Virus record (IMG/VR): IMGVR_UViG_3300009436_000023
From: an uncultured virus (IMG/VR IMGVR_UViG_3300009436_000023)
Taxonomy: Duplodnaviria > Heunggongvirae > Uroviricota > Caudoviricetes
Reading direction: 5' to 3' (one strand)
DNA length: 20,000 nucleotides
Shown: positions 2,103 to 19,543 of the stretch, piece by piece
Position numbering within the stretch: position 1 is the stretch's first letter
Layout of the letters: the number at the start of each line of letters is the position of its first letter
The notes under the pieces: generated by a model
Seen by the model: only the letters and a program-made list of their open reading frames with translations
What the model was told of the DNA's origin: nothing
Databases searched by the model: none
Position numbers and translations under genes: made by a program

Positions 2103-2106
2103 GGGG

Positions 2107-2135
2107 TTGACAAGGTATGGACAGGGTGATAAACT
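2107..2135 (+). promoter_or_regulatory. sigma70-type early promoter
   Basis: TTGACA (2107-2112), 17-nt spacer, TGn-TAAACT (2130-2135). Confidence 0.55.
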
Positions 2136-2305: not shown

Positions 2306-2408
2306 TTACGTAGTTGAGCTACAAGAGCAAATGACTGAAGAAGAAGCGCAAGCACAATACGAAGAAGAGTATGAGCCTTGCTTTGAATCAGATGAGGACG
2401 GTAGATGA
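2289..2408 (+). CDS. small acidic hypothetical protein (39 aa, not in ORF track)
   Basis: MSKIGNYVVELQEQMTEEEAQAQYEEEYEPCFESDEDGR. GGGAG SD at 2276-2280; the stop overlaps the gp52 start (ATGA). Confidence 0.65.
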   Translation: MSKIGNYVVELQEQMTEEEAQAQYEEEYEPCFESDEDGR

Positions 2409-3751: not shown

Positions 3752-4147
3752 ATGTACTACACTGCATACGCCAAGCCAAAGATTATAACAAACAAGCTAA
3801 TGGACAAAGTTGTCGTGTTTGCTTGTGACTTTCTTAATCTTGACGTTGACCTTGAAATAGAATTCAAGGGCGTAGAGAATGGTGGGTATGTTGACTTTGA
3901 AGAAGGTGAAGACATCGTTGTCGGTATCAATCCAGATCAAAGTAAGAACGAACTAATCCGTACTATCTTTCATGAGATGGTTCACGTTAAGCAGTATGTT
4001 GAAGGTGACTTGTCTCACGAAAATTCAGATAATCTCTGGAAAGGTGAGGTTGTTGATGTTCCTTATTCAGATCGTCCATGGGAGAAAGAAGCTTATGAGC
4101 AAGAAGAAGCTATGTGGCACATCTTTACAAAAGAGGTTGGACTATGA
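3752..4147 (+). CDS. HExxH zincin-like putative metallopeptidase
   Basis: TIFHEMVHVKQY plus PYSDRPWEKEAY. Confidence 0.7.
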   Translation: MYYTAYAKPKIITNKLMDKVVVFACDFLNLDVDLEIEFKGVENGGYVDFEEGEDIVVGINPDQSKNELIRTIFHEMVHVKQYVEGDLSHENSDNLWKGEVVDVPYSDRPWEKEAYEQEEAMWHIFTKEVGL

Positions 4148-4527
4148 TAATTGACGTTGCAGTCAACGAAAAATATGATGCTCTTTTGGATGACTTTGTT
4201 TACTACATCTGCAAGCATTTTGGTATTATCCCACGGAAGATTTCTATAGAAACTGCTGACCTAGTTGGTAACAGAGGGATGTGCTTTGATGACGATGATG
4301 GAGAGTTTACTATCTTGGTAAAAACAAATGATGATATGGGACAGACTTTCGCAACTGTTGCGCATGAGATGATCCATGTTAAACAATATATGACACAAAA
4401 TCTTGGTCAGATACTTGACGAAAGTACGGCAATGCCGTATGATTCGCGGTGGTGGGAAGATGAAGCTTTTAATGGTGCGGTTCCTCTTGTGGAATCTTTT
4501 GCAACTAAGATCAAACTTTCTAGTTGA
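4144..4527 (+). CDS. HExxH zincin-like putative metallopeptidase (paralog of the previous gene)
   Basis: TVAHEMIHVKQY plus PYDSRWWEDEAF. Start placed at ATG 4144 (GAGG SD, ATGA overlap). Confidence 0.7.
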   Translation: MIIDVAVNEKYDALLDDFVYYICKHFGIIPRKISIETADLVGNRGMCFDDDDGEFTILVKTNDDMGQTFATVAHEMIHVKQYMTQNLGQILDESTAMPYDSRWWEDEAFNGAVPLVESFATKIKLSS

Positions 4528-4552
4528 CACCACCCAACCACTAGTGTATTAT
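4524..4552 (+). promoter_or_regulatory. sigma70-type early promoter
   Basis: TTGACA (4524-4529), 17-nt spacer, TATTAT (4547-4552). Confidence 0.7.
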
Positions 4553-4580
4553 ACACTTAATCGAAAGAAAAGGAAAACAA

Positions 4581-4811
4581 ATGAGTATCGACTTAACATT
4601 CTTTGAGGTAACGGATACCCAAAAACAAGTGGCTAATCTTGGTCGCAAGATGATGGAGTATTCGGAGAACTACAAAGACTCTGATATTCCCTTGGAAATT
4701 CTTAATGCAATGTCTCGTGTCGGAGAAAATCTTGCTGAAAATGCTTATGATAAAGTAAAGCTAGATGAGATCGATACTATGGTTGTTAAATATGCTAGGA
4801 GAGTGTTATGA
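4581..4811 (+). CDS. hypothetical early protein
   Basis: AAGGA SD; 76 aa; coupled to the next ORF. Confidence 0.75.
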   Translation: MSIDLTFFEVTDTQKQVANLGRKMMEYSENYKDSDIPLEILNAMSRVGENLAENAYDKVKLDEIDTMVVKYARRVL

Positions 4812-5056
4812 GTGAGTTGGGCTTTGAAACTTCATATGAAGATGAAGTGACAGTTGAAATTATGGATTGGGCTTTGGATACAATGCCAGATGAAGTAAAA
4901 GGCATGACACTAGAAGAAGTTGCAGATAAATATTGGGAAGTACACTTGAGTAGTACGCCAGATGAAGATGCCTTTTCTGTATTACCCGACTTCGATGATG
5001 ATGCTCTAACAGACTTAACAAAAACATATGGGAATCAACCAAATGAAAAATTTTAA
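4808..5056 (+). CDS. highly acidic hypothetical protein
   Basis: GGAG SD, ATGA overlap; about 23 D/E versus 4 K in 82 aa. Confidence 0.7.
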   Translation: MSELGFETSYEDEVTVEIMDWALDTMPDEVKGMTLEEVADKYWEVHLSSTPDEDAFSVLPDFDDDALTDLTKTYGNQPNEKF

Positions 5057-5519
5057 GAAATTAGTATTGGTAGCCGCTCTGGCTACTGCAACACAGGCTA
5101 CGGCAAACGAGAATGTAACAAACATTACAGTCTTTGATCATACTAAGACCGTAGTTACCAACAACCCTATTCAAGTTCGTGAATGTCGTGACGTAGAAGT
5201 CCCAGTTTATGAAAACTACCAAGGTGAAGGAGATGCCGCAGGCGGCGCATTTCTAGGAATGATCATTGGTGGCTTGCTTGGAAAAGGTGTTACTGGTGAT
5301 GATGGTGGTGCGGCGGCTGGAGCGGTGATCGGTGGATTAGTTGGTGCTGATAAAGGCGCAAAAGGTTCGAATGGTCAACGTATTGTAGGATATTCTTACG
5401 AAGAGCGTTGTAATATCGTGACTGAGAATCGTAGAGAAGAGCGAGAAGTATATAGCCACTCTACCATTCGTTTCCATCTTGGTGGTGAGCGTCACGTTTT
5501 AAAGTTTCAACGCCGATGA
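5043..5519 (+). CDS. secreted glycine-zipper 2TM (YcfJ-like) protein
   Basis: Signal peptide MKNFKKLVLVAALATATQATA, Cys pair, and GAFLGMIIGGLLG...GAAAGAVIGGLVG glycine zipper. Confidence 0.75.
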   Translation: MKNFKKLVLVAALATATQATANENVTNITVFDHTKTVVTNNPIQVRECRDVEVPVYENYQGEGDAAGGAFLGMIIGGLLGKGVTGDDGGAAAGAVIGGLVGADKGAKGSNGQRIVGYSYEERCNIVTENRREEREVYSHSTIRFHLGGERHVLKFQRR

Positions 5520-5617
5520 TAGATATTGTCGTAGCTAACCTAATCTTTTGGAGTTTGTATATTTTCATAGGTACAATTCCTTATCGTGTAATGCAGAAAG
5601 CAATTGACAATTCATGA
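5516..5617 (+). CDS. small membrane protein (33 aa, not in ORF track)
   Basis: MIDIVVANLIFWSLYIFIGTIPYRVMQKAIDNS; ATGA overlaps at both ends. Confidence 0.6.
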   Translation: MIDIVVANLIFWSLYIFIGTIPYRVMQKAIDNS

Positions 5618-5799
5618 GATACACATTAGAAAGAAACGGTAAAGTGGTACAACACATTGTAATGGTTGGTGCTGAGAAAAGTAACTTCAAGACCCCTACT
5701 GTGTTTGACCTTAAATTTGAAACATACGAAGCGGCTAATGAAGTAGCCGAAGTGTTAAAAGCCAAAGTTGTAGATAACCAAGCTACATTAGCGGCGTAA
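5614..5799 (+). CDS. hypothetical protein
   Basis: 61-aa ORF coupled to the upstream ORF and ending just before tRNA-Arg. Confidence 0.65.
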   Translation: MRYTLERNGKVVQHIVMVGAEKSNFKTPTVFDLKFETYEAANEVAEVLKAKVVDNQATLAA

Positions 5800-5805
5800 G
5801 AATTA

Positions 5806-5882
5806 GTTTCCTTAGCTCAGCTGGATAGAGCAACTGCCTTCTAAGCAGTAGGTCGTAGGTTCGAATCCTACAGGGAACGCCA
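5806..5882 (+). tRNA. tRNA-Arg (UCU)
   Basis: Acceptor GTTTCCT/AGGGAAC, D arm GCTC/GAGC, anticodon arm ACTGC-CTTCTAA-GCAGT, T arm GTAGG-TTCGAAT-CCTAC, encoded CCA. Confidence 0.95.
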
Positions 5883-5891
5883 AAACAGTGT

Positions 5892-5966
5892 GCGAGAGTA
5901 GCTTAGCGGTAGAGCAAGACGCTCATAACGTCCAGGTCGTAGGTTCGATCCCTACCTCTCGCACCA
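5892..5966 (+). tRNA. tRNA with CAU anticodon (elongator Met most likely; Ile2 not excluded)
   Basis: Acceptor GCGAGAG/CTCTCGC, anticodon loop CTCATAA, T loop TTCGATC, ACCA end. The paired 1:72 and lack of GGG/CCC in the anticodon stem argue against an initiator tRNA. Confidence 0.9.
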
Positions 5967-5970
5967 AGAA

Positions 5971-6166
5971 CGTGTTGGGTAGCACCGACTAGTATGGGTC
6001 AGCAAATCCCATATGATGAGAAGTGATTTAGCAGTCACAACAAAAGGCTTGATGGAAGTATCTCGGCAGGTGCATGTCGTTAGCAAGGTAGGGGTGGAGT
6101 TATACCAAAGAATATCTAACGTTCTACGATATTTGACTTTGAAACTCCTCTTGCGCACCACCCATA
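5971..6166 (+). ncRNA. candidate structured non-coding RNA (family unknown)
   Basis: Three short hairpins with AGCA-containing loops, then a five-helix interrupted rod (6069-6159), directly after the tRNAs. Confidence 0.5.
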
Positions 6167-6186
6167 ACTTTAACAAGGTAATAAGT

Positions 6187-6327
6187 ATGCGAAACATTTA
6201 CGAGAAAAAAGACCTGACAATAAAAGAACTTACAAAACTATTTTCTGATAATGATATCGATTATTTCATCAAATCAGTAGATGGATGCGTTGCCGCAATA
6301 CATTTTATCGTTAAGCCTGATGAGTAG
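6187..6327 (+). CDS. small hypothetical protein (46 aa)
   Basis: C-terminal part of track ORF 6013..6327; AAGGT SD before ATG 6187; overlaps the galE-like start. Confidence 0.6.
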   Translation: MRNIYEKKDLTIKELTKLFSDNDIDYFIKSVDGCVAAIHFIVKPDE

Positions 6328-7186
6328 GGTTCTTGTAACAGGAGCTACTGGATATGTAGGTAGCCACTTAGTTAAGCGTCTTGCTGAATATGGGCATGAG
6401 GTTCATGGTATTGACATTAACTTCCACGGTGAACATAACAATGTTGAAAAGTATTGTAGCTTAAAGCTACAGGATATCACATGGGTTATGAAGTATCGTT
6501 CAGAATACGATGCTGTTGTCCATCTTGCTGGTAGAAGTGTCGTACCACAAAGTCTTATTGAACCATCTGAGTATTACAGAGTGAATACGATGGGTACAGA
6601 TAATCTGTTTAATTATATCGATACACCCAACCTTATTTTTGCGAGTACGTCTAGTGCATTTGAAATGGCATCTCCATACGCACGATCTAAGGTAGCGGCT
6701 GAGGATATCATAAAGGAGAAGTCCAATGGGCATACTATTTTCCGCTTTTTTAATGTCTCTGGTTCTAATGGTGTTCATAGGCAACTTGGCTCTGCCACTC
6801 ATCTTATTCGTCGTTGTGCTATGGTTGCTGCTGGAAATCTTCCCCACATTGATATATTTGGCGTGGATTATCCTACTCGTGACGGTACTTGTATACGCGA
6901 TTATGTACATGTCAGTGATCTTAGTTCTGCTATAGCAAAATCAGTTGAGACTGGCGCACTAAATACTGAGTATGAGTGTTTGGGTGGTAATGTAGGTTAT
7001 ACTGTTCTTGAAGTTATTAGTGCAATGGAACGTGTGACAGGCAAGAAAATCAAGACTGTAATTCAAGGAAGACGACAGGGTGATGCAGTATCATCAGTTG
7101 TTGACAATCTGAGTAAATGTGTTACACTTACAAAGACTTTAGAGGATATGTGTTTGGATCAATATAAGTTGGAACTAACACTTTAA
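6320..7186 (+). CDS. galE: UDP-glucose 4-epimerase-like NAD-dependent epimerase
   Basis: VLVTGATGYVGSH, HLAG, YARSK (YxxxK), RFFNVSG, FGVDYPTRDGTCIRDYVHVSDL, RRQGD. Confidence 0.85.
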   Translation: MSRVLVTGATGYVGSHLVKRLAEYGHEVHGIDINFHGEHNNVEKYCSLKLQDITWVMKYRSEYDAVVHLAGRSVVPQSLIEPSEYYRVNTMGTDNLFNYIDTPNLIFASTSSAFEMASPYARSKVAAEDIIKEKSNGHTIFRFFNVSGSNGVHRQLGSATHLIRRCAMVAAGNLPHIDIFGVDYPTRDGTCIRDYVHVSDLSSAIAKSVETGALNTEYECLGGNVGYTVLEVISAMERVTGKKIKTVIQGRRQGDAVSSVVDNLSKCVTLTKTLEDMCLDQYKLELTL

Positions 7187-7261
7187 TGGGAAGTAGCTCA
7201 ATGGTAGAGCATCTGTTTTTGGTACAGAAGGTTGTAGGTTCGAGTCCTACCTTCCCAGCCA
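7187..7261 (+). tRNA. tRNA-Gln (UUG)
   Basis: Acceptor TGGGAAG/CTTCCCA with U1-A72 and G73 (Gln identity elements), anticodon arm TCTGT-TTTTGGT-ACAGA, T loop TTCGAGT, CCA. Confidence 0.93.
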
Positions 7262-7280
7262 AATTATAAGAGGAACTTAA

Positions 7281-7796
7281 GTGGCTGATGTTTTGATGTT
7301 AAATGCTGATGGTCAACCAGTCAGTTATCTACCACTTAGTACCATTAAATGGAAAGAAGCAATCATGTACATGTGGCACGATAAGTGTACTGTATTAGAT
7401 TGGTACGACGATTGGGTTGTAAGATCACCATCGTGGGAAACCAAAGTTCCATCTGTTATCATATTAAAAGATTATGTTCGCAAGAAAACCCAAGTGCGGT
7501 TCTCTAAAAATAACGTTTATCTAAGAGACTTGTATACTTGTCTGTATTGTGAACAGCACGTCAGTCGTTCCATGGCAACACTTGATCACGTCATACCACT
7601 TAGCTTGGGTGGCAAAACTACATGGGAAAACATCGCTACTGCGTGTAATAAATGTAATGGTATTAAAGCAAACAGGACAAATATGAAGCCAGTATATGTA
7701 CCATACCGCCCTGGTTATTACGAGTTAGTTCGTAAGAAAAAACAATTCGAGATCGAAGCTACGCATCCTTCTTGGGAAAAGTGGTTGACAAGCTAA
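7281..7796 (+). CDS. HNH endonuclease family protein
   Basis: RDLYTCLYC, TLDHVIPLSLGG, WENIATACNKCN; GTG start with GAGGA SD. Confidence 0.88.
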   Translation: MADVLMLNADGQPVSYLPLSTIKWKEAIMYMWHDKCTVLDWYDDWVVRSPSWETKVPSVIILKDYVRKKTQVRFSKNNVYLRDLYTCLYCEQHVSRSMATLDHVIPLSLGGKTTWENIATACNKCNGIKANRTNMKPVYVPYRPGYYELVRKKKQFEIEATHPSWEKWLTS

Positions 7797-7813
7797 ACGA
7801 ATCATAGTATTGG
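7785..7813 (+). promoter_or_regulatory. probable early promoter
   Basis: TTGACA (7785-7790) with a weak -10 (TATTGG at 17 nt), upstream of ORF 7843. Confidence 0.45.
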
Positions 7814-7842
7814 TTGTTCATCAACTATGAAAGGACGATGTT

Positions 7843-8244
7843 ATGACCTTCACCTATTGCGACGATTTAATCTCCGACTTCCACAAAGATGTGTATGGTT
7901 ACCGCCCACGTGAAAGTTTTTGGAATGAATGGGAAACCCTTACCCCAACCCAAAAGCAAACAATTTGGGATGAGTATGATCGTGTCAGTGAACTTCAAGT
8001 GATTGAAACCAAAGCGCAAGAAGAGCGTGACGTTGCTAAGTTTGAAGATCGTGTTCAAGATGTTATCAATATCGGCGCGGGCAATCGTAAGACTGCTTTG
8101 AAGTGGATCGCTGATAGCGAAACTTTCTACCACGGACAAGATGTTGAGCATTTTGTGTGGCAACAAGGTATCCTTTTCACAGGATATGGCAAACAACTAA
8201 TCAAAGATTTATTAGAAGTTGTTAAGTACAAGGAGTACGCATAA
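7843..8244 (+). CDS. phage hypothetical protein
   Basis: AAGGA SD; SDFHKDVYGYRPR motif resembles small early proteins of T4-like phages. Confidence 0.8.
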   Translation: MTFTYCDDLISDFHKDVYGYRPRESFWNEWETLTPTQKQTIWDEYDRVSELQVIETKAQEERDVAKFEDRVQDVINIGAGNRKTALKWIADSETFYHGQDVEHFVWQQGILFTGYGKQLIKDLLEVVKYKEYA

Positions 8245-8444
8245 TGGAAGTTAAAGTATATAAGCATAAAATTGATCTGAATACAGTACACACTTTTGGG
8301 TCTTATGGGTGCAACCTATACACGCAAGATGGAGAGTTCGTTGAGGCTCGTGTGTTCCATATGATGTCAGGTCAGATGTTCCACAATGAAATTCGTGAGA
8401 TCGCTCAGTTTGAAAAGCTACGAGTGGAGTCTCTAGCTTACTAA
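8244..8444 (+). CDS. hypothetical protein
   Basis: AGGAG SD, TAATG coupling. Confidence 0.7.
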   Translation: MEVKVYKHKIDLNTVHTFGSYGCNLYTQDGEFVEARVFHMMSGQMFHNEIREIAQFEKLRVESLAY

Positions 8445-8447
8445 AAC

Positions 8448-8476
8448 TTGACAAATCGCACTTTTTGTGGTATCAT
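8448..8476 (+). promoter_or_regulatory. sigma70-type promoter
   Basis: TTGACA (8448-8453), 17-nt spacer, TGn-TATCAT (8471-8476). Confidence 0.7.
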
Positions 8477-8509
8477 AAATTAATAGGTTCTAGTAATGGA
8501 ATAGGTAAT

Positions 8510-8593
8510 ATGATAGATAAAGCTAATACTATAGGAGACTTGATTATTAATTATTTAAGATTTATATCTCCTTATGATAAGGATAAACAATGA
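8510..8593 (+). CDS. possible 27-aa leader ORF
   Basis: MIDKANTIGDLIINYLRFISPYDKDKQ; AGGT SD; ATGA overlap with 8590. Confidence 0.35.
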   Translation: MIDKANTIGDLIINYLRFISPYDKDKQ

Positions 8594-9663
8594 AGGTTAC
8601 AGTTGTTCAAGATGACATTACATCTGAGATTAGTCGTATTATGGACTATGAGTTTGATGGTACTACTACGTTCTATCCTCATGAGTTCAGTGCTATTGAT
8701 CGTGAGACTACGCTTAAAGACTTTGGTGTTGGTTTGATTGTGGGACCTTCTGGTTCTGGTAAGACAACTTTACTTAAAGAGTTTGGTCAAGAGGTTGAAC
8801 CTGTTTGGGATGGTGACAAATCTATTGCTTCTCATTTCAAGGATATTGATGATGTGCAAGATCGTTTAGGTGCTGTTGGGTTTAACAGTATCCCTTCTTG
8901 GTTGCGTCCTTATCATGTTCTTTCCAATGGTGAACAGTTTCGTGCTAGGTTGGCTAGACAGTTAGATAGTAATATCGTTGTTGATGAGTTCACATCTGTT
9001 ATTGACAGAGACGTTGCTAAGAGTTGTTCTAATGCTATTAGTCGTTACGTTAAAAGAAACAATTTAAAGAATATTGTATTTTCATCTTGTCATTATGACA
9101 TCATTGAGTGGTTGCAACCAGATTGGGTTTTTGACACTCATACTGGTAAGCTGACCACAAGGGGGTATCATCGGCCAGACATTGTTTTGGAAATCTTACC
9201 TTGCACCAGAGACATCTGGACGATCTTCAGCGACCACCACTATCTCGACGGAAACATTCACTCAGGTGCATCATGTTGGATTGCAGTCTGGAACGACAGA
9301 CTTGTCGGATTTCTTTCTAGCTTAAGCATGCCTTCTGGCAGTTTGAAGAATGCTTGGCGAGGTCATCGTACCGTCGTTTTGCCAGAGTTTCAAGGTTTGG
9401 GGATTGGTGCTAGAATGACAGAAGCTATGGGAGAATTACACTTAATAGAAGGTAAAAGATATTTTACAAAAACGGCTCACCCTAGATTGGGAGAGTTTCG
9501 GAATAATTCTGATAAATGGCGTGGTACATCTAAGAATGGCGTCGCACGTTTAGATTACAATACCAATGACAGTACCTTTGGTGGGTTTGCTGGTGGCTTA
9601 CAAAAACATATGAACAGAATGTGCTATTCGCACGAGTATATCGGACTTGCTTCTAAAGCATAA
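8590..9663 (+). CDS. ABC-type ATPase fused to a GNAT acetyltransferase domain
   Basis: Walker A GPSGSGKT, signature LSNGEQFR, Walker B IVVDEF, H-loop SSCH; C-terminal GNAT motif A RTVVLPEFQGLGIG. Confidence 0.85.
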   Translation: MKVTVVQDDITSEISRIMDYEFDGTTTFYPHEFSAIDRETTLKDFGVGLIVGPSGSGKTTLLKEFGQEVEPVWDGDKSIASHFKDIDDVQDRLGAVGFNSIPSWLRPYHVLSNGEQFRARLARQLDSNIVVDEFTSVIDRDVAKSCSNAISRYVKRNNLKNIVFSSCHYDIIEWLQPDWVFDTHTGKLTTRGYHRPDIVLEILPCTRDIWTIFSDHHYLDGNIHSGASCWIAVWNDRLVGFLSSLSMPSGSLKNAWRGHRTVVLPEFQGLGIGARMTEAMGELHLIEGKRYFTKTAHPRLGEFRNNSDKWRGTSKNGVARLDYNTNDSTFGGFAGGLQKHMNRMCYSHEYIGLASKA

Positions 9664-9666
9664 ATA
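9659..9666 (+). promoter_or_regulatory. possible T4-type late promoter (CATAAATA) upstream of hemE
   Basis: 7/8 match to TATAAATA, about 33 nt upstream of the hemE ATG. Confidence 0.4.
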
Positions 9667-9699
9667 ATTGACCAACTAAGTTTTTGGAGCAAAGCTAAT

Positions 9700-10677
9700 A
9701 TGAACGAAAAATTTACAAACGCAATTAACCGTGTCGAACAATCGTGTCCACCTATTTGGATGATGCGTCAAGCAGGTCGATACCAGAGTTCCTACATGCA
9801 ACTCAAAGAACAATATAACTTTATGCAAATGTGTAAACTTCCGCAAATAGCGGCTAAGGTTGCTATGTTGCCTATTGATGAATTTGATTTTGATGTTGCT
9901 ATCTTGTTTAGTGACATTCTTTGGCATGTCGAAGGATTGGGTCTTCCATTGGCGTTTGATCCTAGCCCAAAGTTTGAATTTCATTTATCCGAAGAAAATT
10001 ACAAGAACCACATGTGTATTGAGACAGCAATGGAACACATAAACTTCCAAAAGGTTGCATTGGAAACCACAAGAGATATGTTGCCCAGTAGAAAAAGTTT
10101 GATTGGGTTTGTTGGCGGTCCTTGGAGTCTTCTTAACTATGCTTTAGGAGATAATAAGGTATCACTTGAGTTCAAAACGATGTATTTGAATGATGTTATT
10201 ATTCCTCTTATGGCTAGAAGTATCAGAGCGCAGAAGTTAGCAGGTGCTGAGGTAGTCATGATCTTTGACAGTGGTTTGCATAATATGTCTAAAATATATT
10301 ATGAGAACAAGTATCTCCCAATGATGGAACAGTTATCCGCAATCGGAAAAGTGGGTTACTACACACGTGATTTGCCTAATGGTTCTTTACCTAAAGTTAA
10401 GAAAATGGAATGGGCTGGTATTGGTATCGACTCCACCCAAGACTTGGTAAAAACTTTGAAGACACATACCAATGGGTTTGTCCAAGGCAATTTTGACGAA
10501 CAGCATATGTTATTGGATACTAAACTTTATCATTATGAATTAGATAAATGGTTAGAAAGTTTGGATGGTGTTGACACCACTGGTTGGGTATGTGGATTGG
10601 GTCATGGTATTCACAAACACACTCCAACAGATCACATAAAATACTTTATTAATCAAGTAAGGGATAAGTTTGAATAA
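9700..10677 (+). CDS. hemE: uroporphyrinogen decarboxylase
   Basis: PPIWMMRQAGRY, AILFSDI, GFVGGPWSLLNY, IFDS, VQGNFD, GLGHGI; the key R/D/Y/S/H residues are present. Confidence 0.95.
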   Translation: MNEKFTNAINRVEQSCPPIWMMRQAGRYQSSYMQLKEQYNFMQMCKLPQIAAKVAMLPIDEFDFDVAILFSDILWHVEGLGLPLAFDPSPKFEFHLSEENYKNHMCIETAMEHINFQKVALETTRDMLPSRKSLIGFVGGPWSLLNYALGDNKVSLEFKTMYLNDVIIPLMARSIRAQKLAGAEVVMIFDSGLHNMSKIYYENKYLPMMEQLSAIGKVGYYTRDLPNGSLPKVKKMEWAGIGIDSTQDLVKTLKTHTNGFVQGNFDEQHMLLDTKLYHYELDKWLESLDGVDTTGWVCGLGHGIHKHTPTDHIKYFINQVRDKFE

Positions 10678-11474
10678 TGTTTGACGATTATGCGGCTTGG
10701 TTTAAAACCTTGCAGAATGATATATGTGACACCGTAGAAGACATTGAATGGGATACTTGTTATAACATGGAAGAGCATAAGAGTCCGACCAAAGAAGGTT
10801 GGACTCAAATGCATAAAACGATCAGAGGCGATGTAATTGAAAAAGGTACTGTTAATTTCAGTAAAATCAATTCGTCGTTCGATCCTAAGTTCGCAAGTGA
10901 AATACCTGGGACTGAAGAAAACAATGATTACCAAGCAACTGGTATTAGCGTTGTTCTGCATCCAAAAAACCCCCACGTACCAGCGATGCACTTTAATACA
11001 CGATACATCAAGACATCAACCAAGGAATGGTTTGGTGGTGGAATGGATGTTACGCCCTGCTTGCCTTTCAATACGGAAGCTTATCATGACGTATTGAAAG
11101 AGATGTGTGATAAACACGACGAAGCTTATTACCCAAAGTTTAAACAAGCCTGTGATGAATACTTCTTTATTCCACATCGTAATGAAATGCGTGGTGTTGG
11201 TGGGATATTTTTTGAGTACCACGATCCAAAAGATATGAGTTTTGACTTCGTTAAGGATGTGGGACGAACATTTAATTATCTAGTCAAACATATTACAAAT
11301 GATTTGTCTGACCTTTCCTATACTGATGAAGCTAGAAGAATACTAGAAGTTAAGCGTGGACGCTATGTAGAGTTCAATCTGTTGTACGATAGAGGAACAA
11401 GATTTGGTTTCAAAACAGGGGGCAACATGGAAGCTATTCTCATGACACTTCCCCCAAAAGTTAGGTGGGAATAA
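10677..11474 (+). CDS. hemF: oxygen-dependent coproporphyrinogen III oxidase
   Basis: EKGTVNFS, ATGISVVLHPKNPHVPAMHFNTRY, WFGGGMDVTP, YFFIPHRNEMRGVGGIFF, RGRYVEFNLLYDRGTRFG, EAILMTLPP. Confidence 0.96.
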   Translation: MFDDYAAWFKTLQNDICDTVEDIEWDTCYNMEEHKSPTKEGWTQMHKTIRGDVIEKGTVNFSKINSSFDPKFASEIPGTEENNDYQATGISVVLHPKNPHVPAMHFNTRYIKTSTKEWFGGGMDVTPCLPFNTEAYHDVLKEMCDKHDEAYYPKFKQACDEYFFIPHRNEMRGVGGIFFEYHDPKDMSFDFVKDVGRTFNYLVKHITNDLSDLSYTDEARRILEVKRGRYVEFNLLYDRGTRFGFKTGGNMEAILMTLPPKVRWE

Positions 11475-12211
11475 TGAAGATAGGCGTAAGAGGTAGTGAC
11501 CTTGCATTAGCATATGCTGAGAGAGCCTGTAAGGAGCTACAGTGCGACACAGAGGTAGTAATCATCCAAACTGATGGTGATTTGAACCCTAACACTCCTA
11601 TCCACGAGATAGGTGGTAAGGGTGTATTCTGTAATGCTATTGAATATGCCTTAGTGCAAGGTATCATTGATGTTGGTGTTCATAGCTTAAAAGACATGCC
11701 CGGTGATATCGAACACCCTGATCTTGTTGTTGCATCTTATCTAAAGCGCAATAACCCACACGATGTATTGATAGGTAATGTGTTTGAAGGTTGTGTGATT
11801 GGTACAAGCAGTCCACGAAGAAAAGAACAAATACAAGAATTGTATGGTCATTTGAACGTAGAGATAAAACCTATTAGAGGAAACATAGACACACGTTTAC
11901 AGAAACTTGACGATAAAGAGTACGATGCAATTATCTTAGCAAAAGCTGGTTTAGATGCTCTTGATATATCTAGGATATGCAAACCCTTAGATATCATACC
12001 AGCAGTTGGTCAAGGAACTACTGTATTGCAGTGTAGAAAAGATGATGTTGAAACTATAGAACTTGTTTCTAAAACAAATGATGATCTAACCATGAGACAG
12101 TCTTTCTTAGAAAGAGCATTGCTAAAAGGTATTATGGGAGACTGTAGTACATCAGTTGCCGCCTTTGCTTATGATGATGCGCCCATTAAAATGGATGTTG
12201 TTTATTATTGA
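11474..12211 (+). CDS. hemC: porphobilinogen deaminase (hydroxymethylbilane synthase), C-terminally short
   Basis: IGVRGSDLA, TDGD, GGKGVF, VHSLKDMP, GTSSPRR, IRGNIDTRL, AIILAKAGL, PAVGQG, ERA..GDC (cofactor Cys). Start placed at ATG 11474 (TAATG coupling). Confidence 0.93.
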   Translation: MKIGVRGSDLALAYAERACKELQCDTEVVIIQTDGDLNPNTPIHEIGGKGVFCNAIEYALVQGIIDVGVHSLKDMPGDIEHPDLVVASYLKRNNPHDVLIGNVFEGCVIGTSSPRRKEQIQELYGHLNVEIKPIRGNIDTRLQKLDDKEYDAIILAKAGLDALDISRICKPLDIIPAVGQGTTVLQCRKDDVETIELVSKTNDDLTMRQSFLERALLKGIMGDCSTSVAAFAYDDAPIKMDVVYY

Positions 12212-12236
12212 CAACTTCATGACTTCATGATATGAT
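12208..12236 (+). promoter_or_regulatory. sigma70-type promoter for the Mom-like/MTase genes
   Basis: TTGACA (12208-12213), 17-nt spacer containing ACTTCATG twice, TGn-TATGAT (12231-12236). Confidence 0.7.
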
Positions 12237-12287
12237 ATAGAGATCATAAACGTAATATATGATTTGTAAGTCATAAGGAAGATTGTC

Positions 12288-12923
12288 ATGAGCGTTACGG
12301 ATTACACCGTATCACCAATAACTATACAAGAAGCTACACCGTTTGTTGTTGATTGGCATTACTCCAAGAATACGAATGGCTTGGCTACTCGTTTCTGTTT
12401 CGGTCTTTTCGATGGAACTGAAATGATTGGTGTTATGATATATGCGTATCTAGGCATGGCAAGTGTTTGGAAGAAGTATGGGGAAGTTGAAACAGACGTT
12501 GTTGAATTAAGACGATTGTGCTGTATTGATGACACCCCTAAGAACACGGAGAGTTACTTCATAGCTCAGACTATTAATTGGTTGAGGCAGAATACAGATT
12601 GTAAAGTTGTTGTCAGTTATGCTGACAGTATGCAAGGGCATGTAGGCACTATATACTATGCATCAAACTTTTACTATTTGGGTATGACTGCAAAGGGTAG
12701 ATCGATAAGGATTAAAGGTAATGATCGTCTGTATCACGAAAAGACAATACGGACTTACTACACACCTAAGAATGGCGAGAGGCGTCTTAAACCATACGCA
12801 CAAAAGATTAAGGAACAGCTAGAGAACGGCGAAGCAGAATACGTTCATAGTAAAGGCAAACACATATTCGTATATCCTCTCAATAAGAAGGAAAGACGGA
12901 AGTATAAAATGAAAGCAACTTAG
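12288..12923 (+). CDS. Mom-like GNAT-fold DNA (adenine) modification protein
   Basis: WHYS, FGLF..GVMIY, VELRRLC, PKNTESYFI, VVSYAD..QGHVGTIYYASNFYYLG match the phage Mu Mom family pattern. Confidence 0.75.
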   Translation: MSVTDYTVSPITIQEATPFVVDWHYSKNTNGLATRFCFGLFDGTEMIGVMIYAYLGMASVWKKYGEVETDVVELRRLCCIDDTPKNTESYFIAQTINWLRQNTDCKVVVSYADSMQGHVGTIYYASNFYYLGMTAKGRSIRIKGNDRLYHEKTIRTYYTPKNGERRLKPYAQKIKEQLENGEAEYVHSKGKHIFVYPLNKKERRKYKMKAT

Positions 12924-12924
12924 A

Positions 12925-14517
12925 ATGACTGATGTGAAACTTATGCTAGGCAATTGCTTAGATCGACTTAAAGACCTTGATGATAATTCTGTGGATAGTA
13001 TCGTTACTGATCCACCTTATGGAATTGATTTCATGGGTAAGAAATGGGATTACGATGTTCCGTCCACAGAGATTTGGGAACAAGCAATGAGAGTTCTCAA
13101 ACCAGGTGGTTATCTTCTAGCATTTGCTGGTACACGTACACAGCATCGCATGGCAGTTCGTATTGAAGATGCTGGTTTCGAAATCAGGGATATGATCGCT
13201 TGGGTATATGGTAGTGGATTTCCTAAGTCACATAATGTTAGTAAGGCTATTGATAAGCATAGTGAGAAACCAGAAACAAATGAAAAAATAATTGAATTGA
13301 AAACCCAACTTATTGAAATGTTTGATCAGTGTGTGTTGACCAGAAAGAAAATAGATGAAAAATGTGGTTTTCGTGCTAGTAACTATTTGACACTTCCTTC
13401 TGAAACTAAAAAATATGATCCATGGGTTAATATACTACCGTCACATGACAAATGGAAAATAATAAAAGAAGTTATTGGCGCTAAAGATGATTTGGATATT
13501 GATACCTTGTATAATGATATTGAACGTGAAGTAATTGGAACACAGACAAAAGCAAGAAGCACAAGTGGTAAATCAGCATTACCCACAGTTGGTGGTGATG
13601 TCATATACGAAACTTGGACAATAACTGCGCCCGCTACTGATGCCGCAAAACAATGGGAAGGTTGGGGTACAGCACTCAAACCTGCCCTAGAACCTATTAC
13701 AGTTGCTAGAAAACCATTAGGGGAAAAGACCGTTGCCGCTAATGTTTTGAAGTATGGCACAGGTGGTATCAATATTGATGCTAGTCGTATTCCTACTAAT
13801 CCTGATGTTGATGATGCACGACTTGGTGGGAATGGTTCTTGGAAAACGGATGGAATGGCGGTAAATGCGTATGGTAAGTTCGCAGGAACCGAAAACACTT
13901 CATCTGAGCAAGGTCGTTTCCCTACCAATCTTATTCACGATGGTTCTGAGGAAGTCACGAGTGGATTTCCTGATACTAAGGGTAGGTCAAATAAGGGATC
14001 AAGCAGTTCAACCAAAGTGGATGGTGGGGGTGTGGTATATGGAAAATACACTGGAGAACTGGAATGTGGCACATCCGCTAACCGTGACCCTATCGGTTTT
14101 CAAGAAGGTTCTGCCGCACGTTTCTTCTATGTACCAAAGACATCTAAGAAAGATCGTAATAATGGGCTAGAGAACTTTACACCAAAGGCTACAGCATCAT
14201 CTGAGTTCAGACCAAATCATGCAGAGAAAGCAGACAACGGTGAAGATGGCAATCCATATGGACGTTGGACGCCTACACAGAACAACCACCCTACTGTGAA
14301 GCCCACAGACCTTATGCGCTACCTTGTGACTATGGTGACGCCAAAAGGTGGCACAACCCTTGATCCGTTCATGGGTAGTGGTTCTACAGGACGTGGCGCA
14401 AAGTTAGGTGGGTTCAACTTTATCGGCATTGAGTTAGATGAAAACTACTTGGAGATTGCAAAGGCTAGGATTGATGCCATATCTACTGAGGTTACGCTAG
14501 AAGAATTTTTTAAGTAA
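12925..14517 (+). CDS. N6-adenine/N4-cytosine DNA methyltransferase (beta class) with internal insertion
   Basis: N-terminal motif IV TDPPY, RVLKPGG, WVYGSGFPKS, HPTVKP, C-terminal motif I LDPFMGSGST, FIGIE. Confidence 0.92.
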   Translation: MTDVKLMLGNCLDRLKDLDDNSVDSIVTDPPYGIDFMGKKWDYDVPSTEIWEQAMRVLKPGGYLLAFAGTRTQHRMAVRIEDAGFEIRDMIAWVYGSGFPKSHNVSKAIDKHSEKPETNEKIIELKTQLIEMFDQCVLTRKKIDEKCGFRASNYLTLPSETKKYDPWVNILPSHDKWKIIKEVIGAKDDLDIDTLYNDIEREVIGTQTKARSTSGKSALPTVGGDVIYETWTITAPATDAAKQWEGWGTALKPALEPITVARKPLGEKTVAANVLKYGTGGINIDASRIPTNPDVDDARLGGNGSWKTDGMAVNAYGKFAGTENTSSEQGRFPTNLIHDGSEEVTSGFPDTKGRSNKGSSSSTKVDGGGVVYGKYTGELECGTSANRDPIGFQEGSAARFFYVPKTSKKDRNNGLENFTPKATASSEFRPNHAEKADNGEDGNPYGRWTPTQNNHPTVKPTDLMRYLVTMVTPKGGTTLDPFMGSGSTGRGAKLGGFNFIGIELDENYLEIAKARIDAISTEVTLEEFFK

Positions 14518-14524
14518 AAAGTTC

Positions 14525-14553
14525 TTGACACGAAAAAAGAATCGTTCTATACT
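14525..14553 (+). promoter_or_regulatory. sigma70-type early promoter
   Basis: TTGACA (14525-14530), 17-nt spacer, TATACT (14548-14553). Confidence 0.75.
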
Positions 14554-14580
14554 GAGTTCTGTAAAACGAAAGGAAATATT

Positions 14581-14877
14581 ATGAATAAATGGATATATGA
14601 TTGTTGGAATGTAGTAATGGATCACGAAAAGAATCCACTAAGCAACATTCCTGACTTTGCTACACGACATATGATTATGCAAGTTCTTGCATGGATGTGG
14701 TGTATTACATTTGCTATTATTGTAGGTAGCATGTGGGCAGGAGTAATTAGTATGATGTTACATGCATTAGTATTAGCCGCAATTGCAGTAACAGTAGCAA
14801 CATTTGAAACAGCGAAGCGTAAACCAAATGTATTTGGGGCATACAATGGTCGTGCCAATGGGGGAGAACATGAGTAA
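14581..14877 (+). CDS. small membrane protein (2 TM)
   Basis: AAGGA SD; NPLSNIPD..RHMIMQVLAWMWC followed by hydrophobic helices. Confidence 0.75.
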   Translation: MNKWIYDCWNVVMDHEKNPLSNIPDFATRHMIMQVLAWMWCITFAIIVGSMWAGVISMMLHALVLAAIAVTVATFETAKRKPNVFGAYNGRANGGEHE

Positions 14878-15124
14878 ATTTGAAGTACACAAACCACACA
14901 AGATGCTTGATTGGCTAGAAGGTGAAATGACCGATTGGGCTATTGGATTGGTGACAGAACATTTTGGTGTCGAAGAAGTTGACACAATGTCTCGTGAACA
15001 GATCGATGAAGTAATCGCTGAGTGGGAAAACCTACTAAATCAAAATGGTTATGATTGGTTAGCGCTTGGTTTGCGAAATGCAATTGGCATTTGGGAAAAC
15101 GAGAACGACGAATATATTATTTAA
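14870..15124 (+). CDS. acidic hypothetical protein
   Basis: GGGGAG SD before ATG 14870 (MSKFEV...); converges on iscA. Confidence 0.7.
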   Translation: MSKFEVHKPHKMLDWLEGEMTDWAIGLVTEHFGVEEVDTMSREQIDEVIAEWENLLNQNGYDWLALGLRNAIGIWENENDEYII

Positions 15125-15405
15125 ACAGCAAAACTCTCACCGCAACCGCACGAAGCTGTTGCGTTGGGATTAACTACCTTGAGGTAGCTACCACCTAGTT
15201 CCTCAACGTAGTCAATGGTACAACCGAAGATGAACATCTCTGCCATGGGATCAAGCCACAGATTTTCAACAGTGGGTTCCTTATCGGTAACTCCCCACTC
15301 ATATTGAAAACCAGAACAACCACCACCTTTTACATTAAGTGATACGTTTGGCTTTCCTGCCTTTGCTAAGTACGCTTTCGCGTTATCTGTGACTTGAATG
15401 TTCAT
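15121..15405 (-). CDS. iscA: A-type Fe-S cluster carrier (IscA/SufA/HesB family)
   Basis: VKGGGCSGFQY, G.TIDY, NPNATASCGCGESF (three conserved Cys). Confidence 0.9.
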   Translation of the reverse strand: MNIQVTDNAKAYLAKAGKPNVSLNVKGGGCSGFQYEWGVTDKEPTVENLWLDPMAEMFIFGCTIDYVEELGGSYLKVVNPNATASCGCGESFAV

Positions 15406-15558
15406 TTATTCAGACTTCCAAATCGTCCATGCACCATAGACAATCATGCCATATGCTACTAGACTTACTGGTGCTAATACCATTGCGATACCTGTGCCAA
15501 TTAGCACGGCTCCGTCCAATGATGTACGCTCAGTACATCTGTTTTTAATCCAATTCAT
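15406..15558 (-). CDS. small membrane protein (50 aa, not in ORF track)
   Basis: MNWIKNRCTERTSLDGAVLIGTGIAMVLAPVSLVAYGMIVYGAWTIWKSE; AGGAGA SD; abuts the iscA start. Confidence 0.75.
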   Translation of the reverse strand: MNWIKNRCTERTSLDGAVLIGTGIAMVLAPVSLVAYGMIVYGAWTIWKSE

Positions 15559-15593
15559 AGTTTTTCTCCTAGTTTTTTATTGTTAACATAATG

Positions 15594-15944
15594 TTAATCA
15601 ATTGCCACTATATTAGGCGATAAGCCTTCTTTCTTAGTCAGCGTTACCGCTTTTGCGCTATAACGTGGCTGTCCGTCATCTTTATTGACGAAGTAACTAT
15701 ATTTATAAGGATTGTAAGTTACCGATGTCCCATTTTGAATGGTTTCTGTCGGTTCTACAAGTGTGCCTCTGATGAAAGCATGTACATTCTTTCTACCCTC
15801 ACGAAGCACTTTTGCTCTGCCAGATGGCTGAACAGCAAATGTTGCGTCTTCTAGTTGGACGTCATATGTGTGGGCAATTACTTTACCCTTATGCCTTACA
15901 CTAAACAAGTTCTTGTGTAGATTGTAGTAAACTTCAACACGCAT
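15594..15944 (-). CDS. phage hypothetical protein
   Basis: VYYNLHK, GRKNVHAF, VTYNPYK motifs; AAGGA SD; has its own promoter. Confidence 0.8.
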   Translation of the reverse strand: MRVEVYYNLHKNLFSVRHKGKVIAHTYDVQLEDATFAVQPSGRAKVLREGRKNVHAFIRGTLVEPTETIQNGTSVTYNPYKYSYFVNKDDGQPRYSAKAVTLTKKEGLSPNIVAID

Positions 15945-15972
15945 TAGTACATCCTTTATTTGTTATCAAAAC

Positions 15973-16001
15973 ACTTTAATCGATAAACAAACTAATGTCA
16001 A
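15973..16001 (-). promoter_or_regulatory. sigma70-type promoter (- strand)
   Basis: TTGACA (16001-15996), 17-nt spacer, TAAAGT (15978-15973). Confidence 0.6.
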
Positions 16002-16060
16002 GACACCAAAAACAGCCATCCTCCATTATATAACATAGGGAGCGGTTGTTTTTGGTGTCT
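16001..16060. repeat. 17-bp near-perfect inverted repeat (hairpin/cruciform; possible terminator)
   Basis: AGACACCAAAAACAGCC (16001-16017) / GGTTGTTTTTGGTGTCT (16044-16060), 16/17 complementary, with an inner CTCC/GGAG pair. Confidence 0.8.
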
Positions 16061-16364
16061 ATTTCTTTTTGCCGCCAAGCTTCTTTGGCTCTACTGCCTC
16101 TAGTCGCTTTTCAATCTCATCGATCTTAGCTGTTATCTTTGGATACTTCTTACGCCATGCGTCTTCTGGTTGCTCCAACCAAGTCCAACCCCAACGTTTT
16201 ACTAAGAAGTCAACTGCATTGTCTACCTTCGCATAGCCCCAAAGGCCAATGCGTGTCGTGCTTATATATGCAACAAAGATTGCACCTAAGACTGAACCAC
16301 CCAACGCTGTGTATATCCACAGACGATCACTCGCCATTTGTTGTATCATATCAATCATTATCAT
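16059..16364 (-). CDS. membrane protein with C-terminal coiled segment
   Basis: N-terminal TM (LWIYTALGGSVLGAIFVAYI); AGGAG SD; exact start ambiguous among nearby ATGs. Confidence 0.7.
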   Translation of the reverse strand: MIMIDMIQQMASDRLWIYTALGGSVLGAIFVAYISTTRIGLWGYAKVDNAVDFLVKRWGWTWLEQPEDAWRKKYPKITAKIDEIEKRLEAVEPKKLGGKKK

Positions 16365-17088
16365 TCTCCTTGGTGTACTTACAATAATGGTTCATGCCAT
16401 GATCATATGCACCGTCAAATGGCATTCCCTTTTTCAAGGCTCTCCATCTGCCACGCCACTTATCTTTTACTCGTTGCCACTTTGTGCAGGCTCTAATATT
16501 TCCGTAGTAATTGATGTATCGTGGTGTGGAGTTGTGTCTGTACCCCAACAAAGCAAATGGTACACAAGTAACAAGATCGTTATTGTTGACGTGCCTAAAA
16601 TGAGGTGTTTTGATAGATTTAACAAATTTCTTAGTCCCTGTTCTTGGTGATCCGTAGGTGAATAGCGCATCAACTTTATCTTGTAAACGACTACAAGCAA
16701 TTGTTGCCATAGCACCACCCAACGAGTGACCACATATGAAAAAATTCTTTCCTTCTAATTTTAAACTGTCGATTGAAGTTGACAGTTGATCCCATAATTT
16801 ATCTACTTCTACTTGGAAGCCATTATGTACAAAACCAGAGCCATTCCACGCCCTGTCTGGTAATGCGTTTAGGTCTGCTTTGATATCAGAGAACTCTCCT
16901 GGTTCCGTCCCTCTAAAGCACAAAACATTTTCTTCTTTGTTTCCAATGATGTGAACTTGTGCGCCATCACTCTCAATAAATTTGTGTCTTGTATAACCTA
17001 GTTTTTTATATTGCTTCTTAGCATCTGCGCCATCCATATAAGCTATTTGGGCGCATTGAGCCATTACTGCACATTTATTTATGAACAT
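16351..17088 (-). CDS. class 3 lipase family alpha/beta hydrolase
   Basis: FRGT, VHNGF, CGHSLGGA nucleophile elbow, TYGSPR.G, VNNNDLV..VP, C-terminal DH. Confidence 0.88.
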   Translation of the reverse strand: MFINKCAVMAQCAQIAYMDGADAKKQYKKLGYTRHKFIESDGAQVHIIGNKEENVLCFRGTEPGEFSDIKADLNALPDRAWNGSGFVHNGFQVEVDKLWDQLSTSIDSLKLEGKNFFICGHSLGGAMATIACSRLQDKVDALFTYGSPRTGTKKFVKSIKTPHFRHVNNNDLVTCVPFALLGYRHNSTPRYINYYGNIRACTKWQRVKDKWRGRWRALKKGMPFDGAYDHGMNHYCKYTKENDND

Positions 17089-17100
17089 CTTTCCTATCCT

Positions 17101-17454
17101 TTACTTCAATCCTTTTAATTTAGCTTTCATCATTTCGTGGGCATCTCTAGGTGTCTCCGTGGCTTCTGGCGATAGTCTGGGTTCGGTTTCCCCCCTGCCA
17201 AGAGCAACACTGGATTGTACCTGTTTTCTGCCACGACTTTCTTTTCGATAGCTACCCTCAATACCAAAATATCCGACTTCTTTTTTGAGCCTTTCAAGTC
17301 TTCGCCTGAGATGGAAAACTTTTTCATTTAAGTCTATCCCTATGCTATTTAGTTGTTGCTCTGAAAATTCCGTCCCAATATGGCGGTAAGTCTTGGGTTG
17401 CCATGTAATTACAACGTTCAATCCAAATATCGTAATATTCATCCATTTTGCCAT
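17101..17454 (-). CDS. hypothetical protein; gene model uncertain (alternative 17130..17327)
   Basis: Perfect AAGGAGGT SD 4 nt before ATG 17454, and the stop is 12 nt before the lipase start, but it overlaps the cyclase by 110 nt. Confidence 0.45.
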   Translation of the reverse strand: MAKWMNITIFGLNVVITWQPKTYRHIGTEFSEQQLNSIGIDLNEKVFHLRRRLERLKKEVGYFGIEGSYRKESRGRKQVQSSVALGRGETEPRLSPEATETPRDAHEMMKAKLKGLK

Positions 17455-19396: not shown

Positions 19397-19509
19397 TCTT
19401 CTTTACACTCGCATTTATAGCAGACGTCATTCACACACTCTTTGCAATCTGGACTGTAACAGTGACAACCATGACCGCATTTCTTACAGGTTCTTGGTGT
19501 TCCTTGCAT
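19393..19509 (-). CDS. Cys/His-rich metallothionein-like peptide (38 aa, not in ORF track)
   Basis: MQGTPRTCKKCGHGCHCYSPDCKECVNDVCYKCECKEE (9 Cys, 2 His); GGAG SD; ATGA overlap with the cyclase start. Confidence 0.7.
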   Translation of the reverse strand: MQGTPRTCKKCGHGCHCYSPDCKECVNDVCYKCECKEE

Positions 19510-19535
19510 GTATTAACTCCATATAAAGATACATG

Positions 19536-19543
19536 TATTTATA
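19536..19543 (-). promoter_or_regulatory. T4-type late promoter TATAAATA
   Basis: Exact match on the - strand in the intergenic gap, about 27 nt upstream of the Cys-rich ORF. Confidence 0.7.

Follow-up and report, generated by a model that had tools for sequence, protein, structure and literature searches.

Work on phage genes of tetrapyrrole metabolism has until now dealt with the two ends of the pathway (AlaS on one side, heme oxygenase and bilin reductases on the other). Wegner et al. (2024, Nat Commun; PMC11480375) characterised viral AlaS, HemO, and PcyA/X with enzyme assays; the available part of that paper notes earlier suggestions that phages carry genes for heme and B12, and its main text contains no hemC, hemF, hemJ, or hemE. 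Zaragoza-Solas et al. (2020, mSystems; PMC7029224) describe in one sentence, within the accessible text, a ‘deep ecotype’ pelagimyophage with a coproporphyrinogen oxidase and a porphobilinogen deaminase, and among heme genes the text of their supplements, as available, names heme oxygenase only. In the accessible portions of two further sources, a 2024 preprint lists HemA, HemL, and HemC among auxiliary metabolic genes (AMGs) of sediment viruses by KEGG annotation, and a paper on Baltic Sea AMGs mentions only ahbD. Here we describe a cassette that fills the middle of the pathway, hemE-hemF-hemC, in a stretch of 20,000 nucleotides (hereafter the window) from the uncultured virus record IMGVR_UViG_3300009436_000023. 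Full-text literature searches returned no description of this cassette and no characterised phage system of this kind, as had been assumed in the original prediction, which was made from the sequence alone and knew of no characterised multi-gene phage system for heme synthesis; the cassette is experimentally uncharacterised yet was already noticed in print (2020). Judged from its sequence and setting, the cassette is likely an auxiliary metabolic module of a T4-like marine phage of ~210-225 kb, with a proposed coupling to the host pathway, and its enzymes are probably functional.

The cassette and its phage contig

The three open reading frames (ORFs; Table 1) encode recognisable enzymes of the tetrapyrrole pathway. 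HemE matched Pfam PF01208 with 191.9 bits (cut-off 23.9) over profile positions 3-344 of 346, and HemF and HemC scored above the cut-offs of the NCBIfam equivalogs NF003727 (314.3 bits, cut-off 297) and TIGR00212 (224.6 bits, cut-off 164), respectively. For all three, the best matches in the PDB were solved structures of the same enzymes (E 7e-30 for HemE, 8e-59 for HemF, and 1e-37 for HemC). The genes are joined by two TAATG overlaps, at 10675-10679 and 11472-11476, in each of which one base is common to the stop of one gene and the start of the next. The hemC ORF offers two candidate starts, GTG 11465 (248 amino acids, aa) and ATG 11474 (245 aa), and we took the latter because homologues begin MKIGVRGS or MRVGVRGS. 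The ORFs, the family matches, and both overlaps thus bear out what had been read from the letters, namely three enzymes with recognisable motifs joined stop to start, and the results below likewise support a phage-encoded, intact, and translationally coupled cassette that behaves as an auxiliary metabolic module.

At the residue level, HemE R23, R27, D72, Y147, and H302 were invariant in all ten aligned phage and cellular rows, and the motifs RQAGRY, FSDIL, and GHG aligned with the same motifs of solved uroporphyrinogen decarboxylases; we take the Arg-x-x-x-Arg of RQAGRY, the Asp of FSDIL, the Tyr, and the His of GHG to be substrate-binding or catalytic residues. The HemF protein, comparable in length to its Pelagibacteraceae counterpart (269 aa), had 81 invariant columns in an alignment of 15 rows, including the blocks HPxNPxVPxxHFNTR and KRGRYVEFNLxYDRGT. 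Among 51 HemC rows, R6, K73, D74, R135, R141, and C224 were invariant and R115-R116 were kept in at least 90%, with the cysteine aligning with the GGC motif of solved enzymes; the conserved residues of HemF and HemC presumably have the catalytic roles usually assigned to them. A PHROGs search at E ≤1e-5 assigned none of its families to HemE, HemF, HemC, or HemJ.

Positions 105-20000 of the window are the first 19,896 bases of the 57,330-base IMG/VR record (26% estimated completeness); window positions 1-104 lie outside that record and have no match elsewhere in it. Genes for T4-type topoisomerase II (gp39 and gp52 types) lie upstream of the cassette, and homologues of gp59, gp32, UvsX, and gp41 follow downstream (contig positions 50.9-55.5 kb). 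The gp52 protein is 42-44% identical to those of T-even phages, and gp41 is 51-54% identical to those of Melnitz, Sinorhizobium phiM12-like phages, and cyanomyophages, its best matches among cultured phages. Besides these replication genes, the contig carries a CsgF/CsgG pair, a pelagimyophage-like trait (HTVC008M, Mosig, and Melnitz); among 50,697 GenBank phage records, CsgG was found in HTVC008M (52% identity), in Melnitz (49%), and otherwise in one unannotated 1.5-kb ‘Salmonella phage’ record. The bilin reductase of the contig also had its best match in Pelagibacter phage Mosig (34% identity). By these protein matches, the phage is a putative distant member of the pelagimyophage-like HTVC008M/Mosig/Melnitz group. 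Completeness estimates (57 kb at 26% and 80 kb at 37%) suggest a genome of ~210-225 kb, and the longest contigs with the same proteins (212-227 kb) are consistent with this size. The curli-type pair, known from pelagimyophages, stands in a minus-strand row at contig 20089-23244 together with a FecR-domain protein and an ORF of no assigned function.

The T4-like setting that had been predicted therefore holds for gp39 and gp52; the accompanying claim of late promoters was weak, since the T4 late promoter TATAAATA had three matches in the window, each of them on the minus strand and away from the cassette, a count also reached in 30 of 200 shuffles. The G+C content is even, at 0.38-0.39 across the cassette and 0.39 over the whole contig. 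Near-identical DNA occurred in 20 sequencing runs from 15 studies among the matches listed. Runs X2, X3, X7, and X15 were aligned to positions 8400-13000 (gaps in the cover by X3, X7, and X15 do not imply absence), and no inference was drawn from runs X16-X20, whose word shares were small. Contigs of run X2 showed zero differences over 9090-9724 and 10340-11746, a third contig of that run, which differs in 12 letters and has 2 gaps, spans 11970-12775 and with it the boundary between hemC and mom, and the gene junctions are also bridged by contigs of runs X3 and X7.

Conservation, selection, and transcription

Scanning IMG/VR with HemF returned 36 related viral loci at 57-95% identity (37 records with the contig of the window), of which 32 hold all three genes. 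Two gene orders were equally frequent, hemE-hemF-hemC and hemF-hemC-hemE, with 16 loci each; one further locus has hemE-hemF and then the contig end, two have hemF-hemC and, farther upstream, a distant hemE-like gene (26% identity), and one has hemF alone. In the two loci of the distant type (L007 and L009, 3353-4372), the hemE-like gene lies beside gp39 and replaces the phage-type hemE. In metagenome-wide searches, the best 120 matches of each enzyme were relatives of phage-like length, corresponding to at least 120 protein clusters per enzyme. The novelty is lower than the original prediction assumed, as the cassette is common and two of its genes had been named in 2020. A DNA search of GenBank phages gave no match to the cassette. 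Protein matches to GenBank phages (≤40% identity) were left unused, as the records concerned (the multi-contig ‘Acinetobacter phage MD-2021a’, genome records of Salmonella, and short contigs without annotation) resemble bacterial DNA.

Ratios of nonsynonymous to synonymous substitution rates (dN/dS; Nei-Gojobori method, window against nearer relatives, unsaturated pairs only) were 0.09-0.15 for HemE (partners L004, L026, and L005), 0.07 for HemF with L004 and 0.08 with L006 (dS 1.8, near saturation), and 0.11-0.12 for HemC (L004 and L006). The cassette genes are under purifying selection, and relaxed selection with dN/dS near 1, which had been named as a possible refutation, was not borne out. 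In a quick, unrooted HemF tree of 37 phage rows and the 80 nearest cellular rows, with none dropped, the phage rows were split from the cellular rows on one branch (SH-aLRT 100, length 0.75). Taken together, these sequence comparisons mark the cassette genes as putative old residents of the phage lineage that are maintained by selection. Naming a donor from this tree was rejected, as the node that joins the phage clade to the cellular rows is unresolved and unrooted.

The cassette appears to belong to a transcription unit bordered by two sigma-70-like promoters (Table 1). The upstream promoter, which has its TG ahead of the -10 hexamer and is conserved ahead of the same gene in loci L005, L006, and L026, is likely the start of the unit, as predicted from its sequence. 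The gene that follows it, encoding a P-loop and GNAT-like protein of no assigned function, ends 36 bases before hemE, adjoins hemE in L004, L005, L006, and L026, and is probably co-transcribed with it. Right after hemC, the promoter of the next unit is conserved in L004, L005, L006, L013, L018, and L021 and forms the predicted downstream edge of the cassette unit. Across the contig, the pattern TTGACA-N16-18-TAnnnT occurred 16 times against 3.3 in shuffles (largest shuffle value 8). No sigma-70-like site was found immediately before hemE, and no terminator stood out in 7200-13000. In the metatranscriptome library X15, contigs of a related strain (90-97% identity) extend over 8574-11421 and cover hemE and hemF, which is a hint of transcription.

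In one X15 contig, 63 bases in 9645-9709, the gap between the upstream gene and hemE, are replaced by 605 other letters, and L006 and L026 have ~600 bases between the same two genes; either the spacer varies at this position or a small gene has been inserted there. Downstream of the cassette (window 12288-14517), a Mom-family protein (PF25680, E 3e-42) precedes a 530-aa N6/N4 DNA methylase, whose Pfam match extends over residues 23-513 against a profile of 221 positions and thus implies a large insert. Farther along, the minus strand of window 16351-19396 encodes a 683-aa fusion of a CHASE2 sensor with an adenylate/guanylate cyclase, beside a class 3 lipase; the cyclase gene has one TATAAATA 140 bases upstream.

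Table 1. Positions of the cassette genes, the bordering promoters, and the heme-related genes elsewhere on the contig (window positions unless given as contig positions)
Feature	Position	Strand	Evidence or remark
Sigma-70-like promoter (TTGACA, 17-base spacer with TG, TATCAT)	8448..8476	+	11/12 consensus positions
P-loop and GNAT-like protein, 357 aa	8590..9663	+	Weak Pfam matches to Acetyltransf_7, Acetyltransf_1, and P-loop; phrog_11143, E 3e-111
hemE, uroporphyrinogen decarboxylase, 325 aa	9700..10677	+	Pfam PF01208 URO-D, E 2e-56
hemF, oxygen-dependent coproporphyrinogen III oxidase, 265 aa	10677..11474	+	Pfam PF01218 Coprogen_oxidas, E 1e-85
hemC, hydroxymethylbilane synthase, trimmed, 245 aa	11474..12211	+	Pfam PF01379 Porphobil_deam, E 5e-58
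Sigma-70-like promoter of the next unit (Mom-family protein and DNA methylase)	12208..12236	+	11/12 consensus positions, with TG
Cytochrome P450	contig 41727-42974	-	Outside window
HemJ	contig 46248-46679	+	PF03653, E 9e-49; 34 kb downstream of the cassette, outside window
Heme oxygenase	contig 48150-48740	+	Outside window
Ferredoxin-dependent bilin reductase, PcyA/PcyX-like	contig 49669-50355	+	Outside window

Companion genes and the proposed function

The contig carries further tetrapyrrole genes beyond the window (Table 1). It had been predicted that the phage relies on the host for hemA, hemB, hemD, hemJ, and hemH. For hemJ this was not borne out, as the gene lies on the same contig, and in part of the related viruses the first steps are also encoded: ALA synthase (alaS) scored over the cut-off in 11 of the 37 records and ALA dehydratase (hemB) was present in 12, as hemF-hemC-hemE-hemB. 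The part of the claim that stood concerns hemD and hemH, which were absent from all 37 records. HemJ itself was found in two records (one of the 36 relatives and the contig of the window), heme oxygenase in six, and the bilin reductase in G007, G010, and G036. A single 107-kb record (G036) holds alaS, hemB, hemC, hemE, hemF, heme oxygenase, and bilin reductase, and the phage clade overall encodes six of the eight glycine-to-heme steps (AlaS, HemB, HemC, HemE, HemF, and HemJ) plus two heme-to-bilin steps. The viral alaS frame of G015 (19207-20412) and that of G017 each have one in-frame TGA.

On the contig, hemJ, a 270-aa ORF of no assigned function, heme oxygenase, a 233-aa ORF, and the bilin reductase form one plus-strand row (contig 46248-50355), in which the 233-aa ORF overlaps the start of the bilin reductase. 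This ORF was considered as a candidate bilin-binding partner; it has no Pfam family, and the Atlas groups it with viral hypothetical proteins, some of them with DUF6065. Beside hemJ, a 319-aa membrane-like protein (contig 45272-46231) keeps 81-83% identity in phages whose HemF proteins share only 57-60%. It was rejected as a missing heme enzyme, being grouped by the Atlas as a phosphate/sulfate permease with a Pfam match to PHO4 (E 1.6e-4, under the cut-off); a PHO4-type permease is a lead only. A biosynthesis-like row on the minus strand (contig 37275-43823) recurs in G001 and G010 with 71-100% conservation. It comprises a radical SAM protein of 683 aa, an AMP-binding enzyme, a protein resembling tryptophan halogenases, the P450, which is a phage-encoded heme client, and an Asp/Arg hydroxylase.

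In the mechanism we propose, host RNA polymerase would transcribe the 357-aa gene, hemE, hemF, and hemC early as one transcript with coupled translation. HemC would convert porphobilinogen to hydroxymethylbilane, whose ring host HemD would then close, and HemE and HemF would take uroporphyrinogen III to protoporphyrinogen IX. This product would be oxidised by the phage HemJ, and host HemH would insert the iron, such that the module could sustain the protoporphyrin and heme supply once host gene expression is shut off. As to what the supply is for, the product might refill a small heme pool on which the phage heme oxygenase, bilin reductase, and P450 draw, sparing respiration; we hold this tentatively, as close to an even call, because the phage encodes three such heme-consuming enzymes of its own and because heme oxygenase and reductase accompany the cassette in divergent relatives.

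Several points weigh against the module as we read it. HemE scored below the cut-off of the NCBIfam equivalog TIGR01464 (187.6 bits, cut-off 302.95). A loose promoter scan of 7200-13000 found 19 sites against 19.3 expected, which is not above chance, and the X15 contigs end before hemC and may reflect DNA carry-over, so that transcription is not proven. The 37 virus records are fragments of 1-37% estimated completeness, in which gene absences are weak and provisional. Searches for a hidden HemD or HemH with the Pfam families HEM4 and Ferrochelatase gave none in these records; tblastn at E 0.01 with Pelagibacter HemD and with the C-terminal half of HemC and the HemH of a cellular operon (described below) gave nothing in the own contig, five large contigs, and 47 loci; and a scan of viral contigs with the operon HemH, which detects close relatives only, returned no relative. 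As neither hemD nor hemH is found in the 37 records, the module would be unable to work without the host. The putative host is a SAR11-type (or OM43) bacterium, judging from indirect clues (the nearest named HemF, from Pelagibacteraceae, at 53% identity, and phage HemC at 44-46% to Pelagibacter HemC). The link between the cassette and the heme-consuming enzymes is circumstantial, because relatives in which the cassette was not shown have heme oxygenase and bilin reductase as well (Mosig, and the supplementary AMG table of PMC7029224 in its available form). The remaining points concern HemC, which terminates 21 residues past Cys224 (Pelagibacter HemC, at 305 aa, extends ~60 residues more), so that domain 3 is incomplete, with one helix and a two-strand hairpin left. 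Such short forms are rare elsewhere: 146 of the 150 best representatives at 50% clustering are at least 273 aa long, and two of the other four resemble fragments. According to published titles and abstracts, truncating or splice variants of human HMBS are tied to porphyria, and by analogy the trimmed HemC may be impaired.

The trimmed form is also reflected in a Pfam scan of HemC, which reported no C-terminal domain family (PF03900). An AlphaFold2 model built from 51 sequences was confident (pLDDT 92.3, pTM 0.88) and showed domain 3 as a helix (204-219), the cysteine loop, and a hairpin (228-244); Foldseek comparisons with solved deaminases gave TM-scores of 0.80-0.91 (query) and 0.62-0.74 (targets). 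The short form has been kept among phages, as the best 120 relatives in the metagenome-wide search were all 242-254 aa long at 64-97% identity, and of 34 phage loci, 18 have a HemC ORF call of 245-256 aa and 16 one of 273-278 aa. One short-form HemC cluster, P0152 (69% identical), has other residues where its relatives have the GTSSPRR block with the two conserved arginines, and may be a frameshifted or decayed HemC copy.

Three alternative explanations were weighed against these data. That the cassette is host DNA misjoined to phage DNA, or that the contig is a bacterial island, would fit the close cellular relatives of its genes (44-53% identity), the incomplete, metagenomic nature of the contig, and the fact that GenBank ‘phage’ records with hemE, hemF, or hemC all resemble, by their names and annotation, bacterial DNA filed as phage. 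However, T4-type genes flank the cassette on both sides, 35 other viral contigs and contigs from three further runs show the same junctions, the phage copies make up a long-branched clade by themselves, G+C is even through the region, and the promoters bordering the unit are conserved in relatives. Because relatives carry the genes and contigs from other runs bridge the junctions, chimeric assembly is very unlikely; the chimerism with host DNA that had been raised as a possible refutation was not borne out by the 32 of 36 viral loci that hold the trio, and we regard this alternative as largely refuted and exceedingly improbable. A second possibility is that the trimmed HemC is inactive as a hydroxymethylbilane synthase and serves as a porphobilinogen binder or a partner-requiring subunit, with only HemE and HemF adding catalysis. 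Its reduced domain 3 and the rarity of comparably short forms would favour this; on the other side, the protein retains every residue invariant across cellular HemC (Cys224, Lys73-Asp74, Arg115-Arg116, Arg135, and Arg141), its short form is conserved among its best relatives, its dN/dS is low, it exceeds the NCBIfam equivalog cut-off, NCBIfam also includes a HemC model of 241 positions, and the structural model is confident, such that we consider an inactive HemC improbable.

The third alternative takes up the respiratory purpose suggested in the original prediction, in that the cassette would supply heme solely for host respiratory cytochromes and thereby sustain ATP, with no tie to the phage heme oxygenase and bilin genes. 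Respiratory enzymes need heme, and no heme oxygenase was found in 6 of the 12 records of at least 39 kb. A respiration argument has also been made for viral AlaS in the available text of Wegner et al. (2024; PMC11480375). Against this stand the heme oxygenase, bilin reductase, and P450 encoded on the same contig, the heme oxygenase and bilin reductase of the divergent cassette-bearing records G007 and G036, and the consideration that a heme-destroying enzyme is not expected in a phage wanting only more heme; we hold this explanation to be rather unlikely. Returning to the module that feeds the heme consumers of the phage, one extension is that the real product is a bilin rather than heme, with a role such as chromophore, signal, or antioxidant in a non-photosynthetic SAR11-type host, jointly with HemC being a natural minimal enzyme that functions without most of domain 3; we hold this joint reading to be rather unlikely. 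A naturally minimised HemC with its cofactor cysteine kept would offer a simple test case for what domain 3 does.

Cellular relatives and comparison with described systems

Among cellular proteins, the only named close HemF is that of Pelagibacteraceae. Of the 80 nearest GTDB loci with HemF, 25 have hemC-hemE-hemF-hemJ on one strand with overlapping or abutting genes, and three more have part of the set; in two annotated loci, a ferrochelatase gene lies between hemE and hemF (hemC-hemE-hemH-hemF-hemJ). The genomes bearing this operon are titled as uncultured Alphaproteobacteria (two as Pelagibacteraceae or Pelagibacterales) or as Marinimicrobia. Their HemC is 502-505 aa long, with the N-terminal half being the deaminase (L061 1446-2954 and L060 1455-2972) and the C-terminal 243-246 aa matching no Pfam family even at E 1; this half could be a divergent HemD fusion, and in Pelagibacter a separate HemD follows hemC. 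Phage HemE is 43-47% identical to the alphaproteobacterial/Pelagibacterales operon type, 35-41% to that of Marinimicrobia/TMED, and 28-31% to that of Pelagibacter, and phage HemF is 44-52% identical to the cellular operon type. For HemC the order is reversed, with 44-46% identity to Pelagibacter versus 26-30% to the operon type. Because HemC is nearer to Pelagibacter and HemE nearer to the operon type, these identities suggest a trio that matches the cellular operon in content and is mosaic in origin.

With this cassette, most steps between glycine and bilin are encoded in one abundant ocean phage lineage, relatives included. The questions this raises are what role a bilin or extra heme has in a heterotroph, and which steps of the host are limiting for the flux during infection.

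Compared with the cellular hemC-hemE-hemH-hemF-hemJ operon, the phage has the same set of hemC, hemE, hemF, and hemJ, whereas the operon includes a ferrochelatase and the 502-505-aa HemC. The ‘deep ecotype’ pelagimyophage (PMC7029224), as far as its text is available, shares with the contig the T4-like marine myophage type, CsgF/CsgG, radical SAM genes, a GT8 glycosyltransferase, an Asp/Asn hydroxylase, the coproporphyrinogen oxidase, and the porphobilinogen deaminase; in the available text, hemE, the overlaps, the trimmed HemC, and the cassette as such go unmentioned, and there is no analysis of conservation or selection. Going by the available text of PMC11480375, the viral alaS-hemO-pcyA/X cassette resembles the present one in that aquatic phages whose hosts are non-photosynthetic carry auxiliary genes for tetrapyrrole metabolism; it comprises the first step and two catabolic steps, whereas the genes of the window would provide three middle steps. 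The cyanophage genes ho1, pebS, and pcyA share with the contig a heme oxygenase and ferredoxin-dependent bilin reductases (the contig reductase is 24-31% identical to cyanophage PcyA), but they are catabolic and provide for the phycobilisome pigments of cyanobacteria, whereas the genes of the window are biosynthetic and their host is likely a heterotroph.

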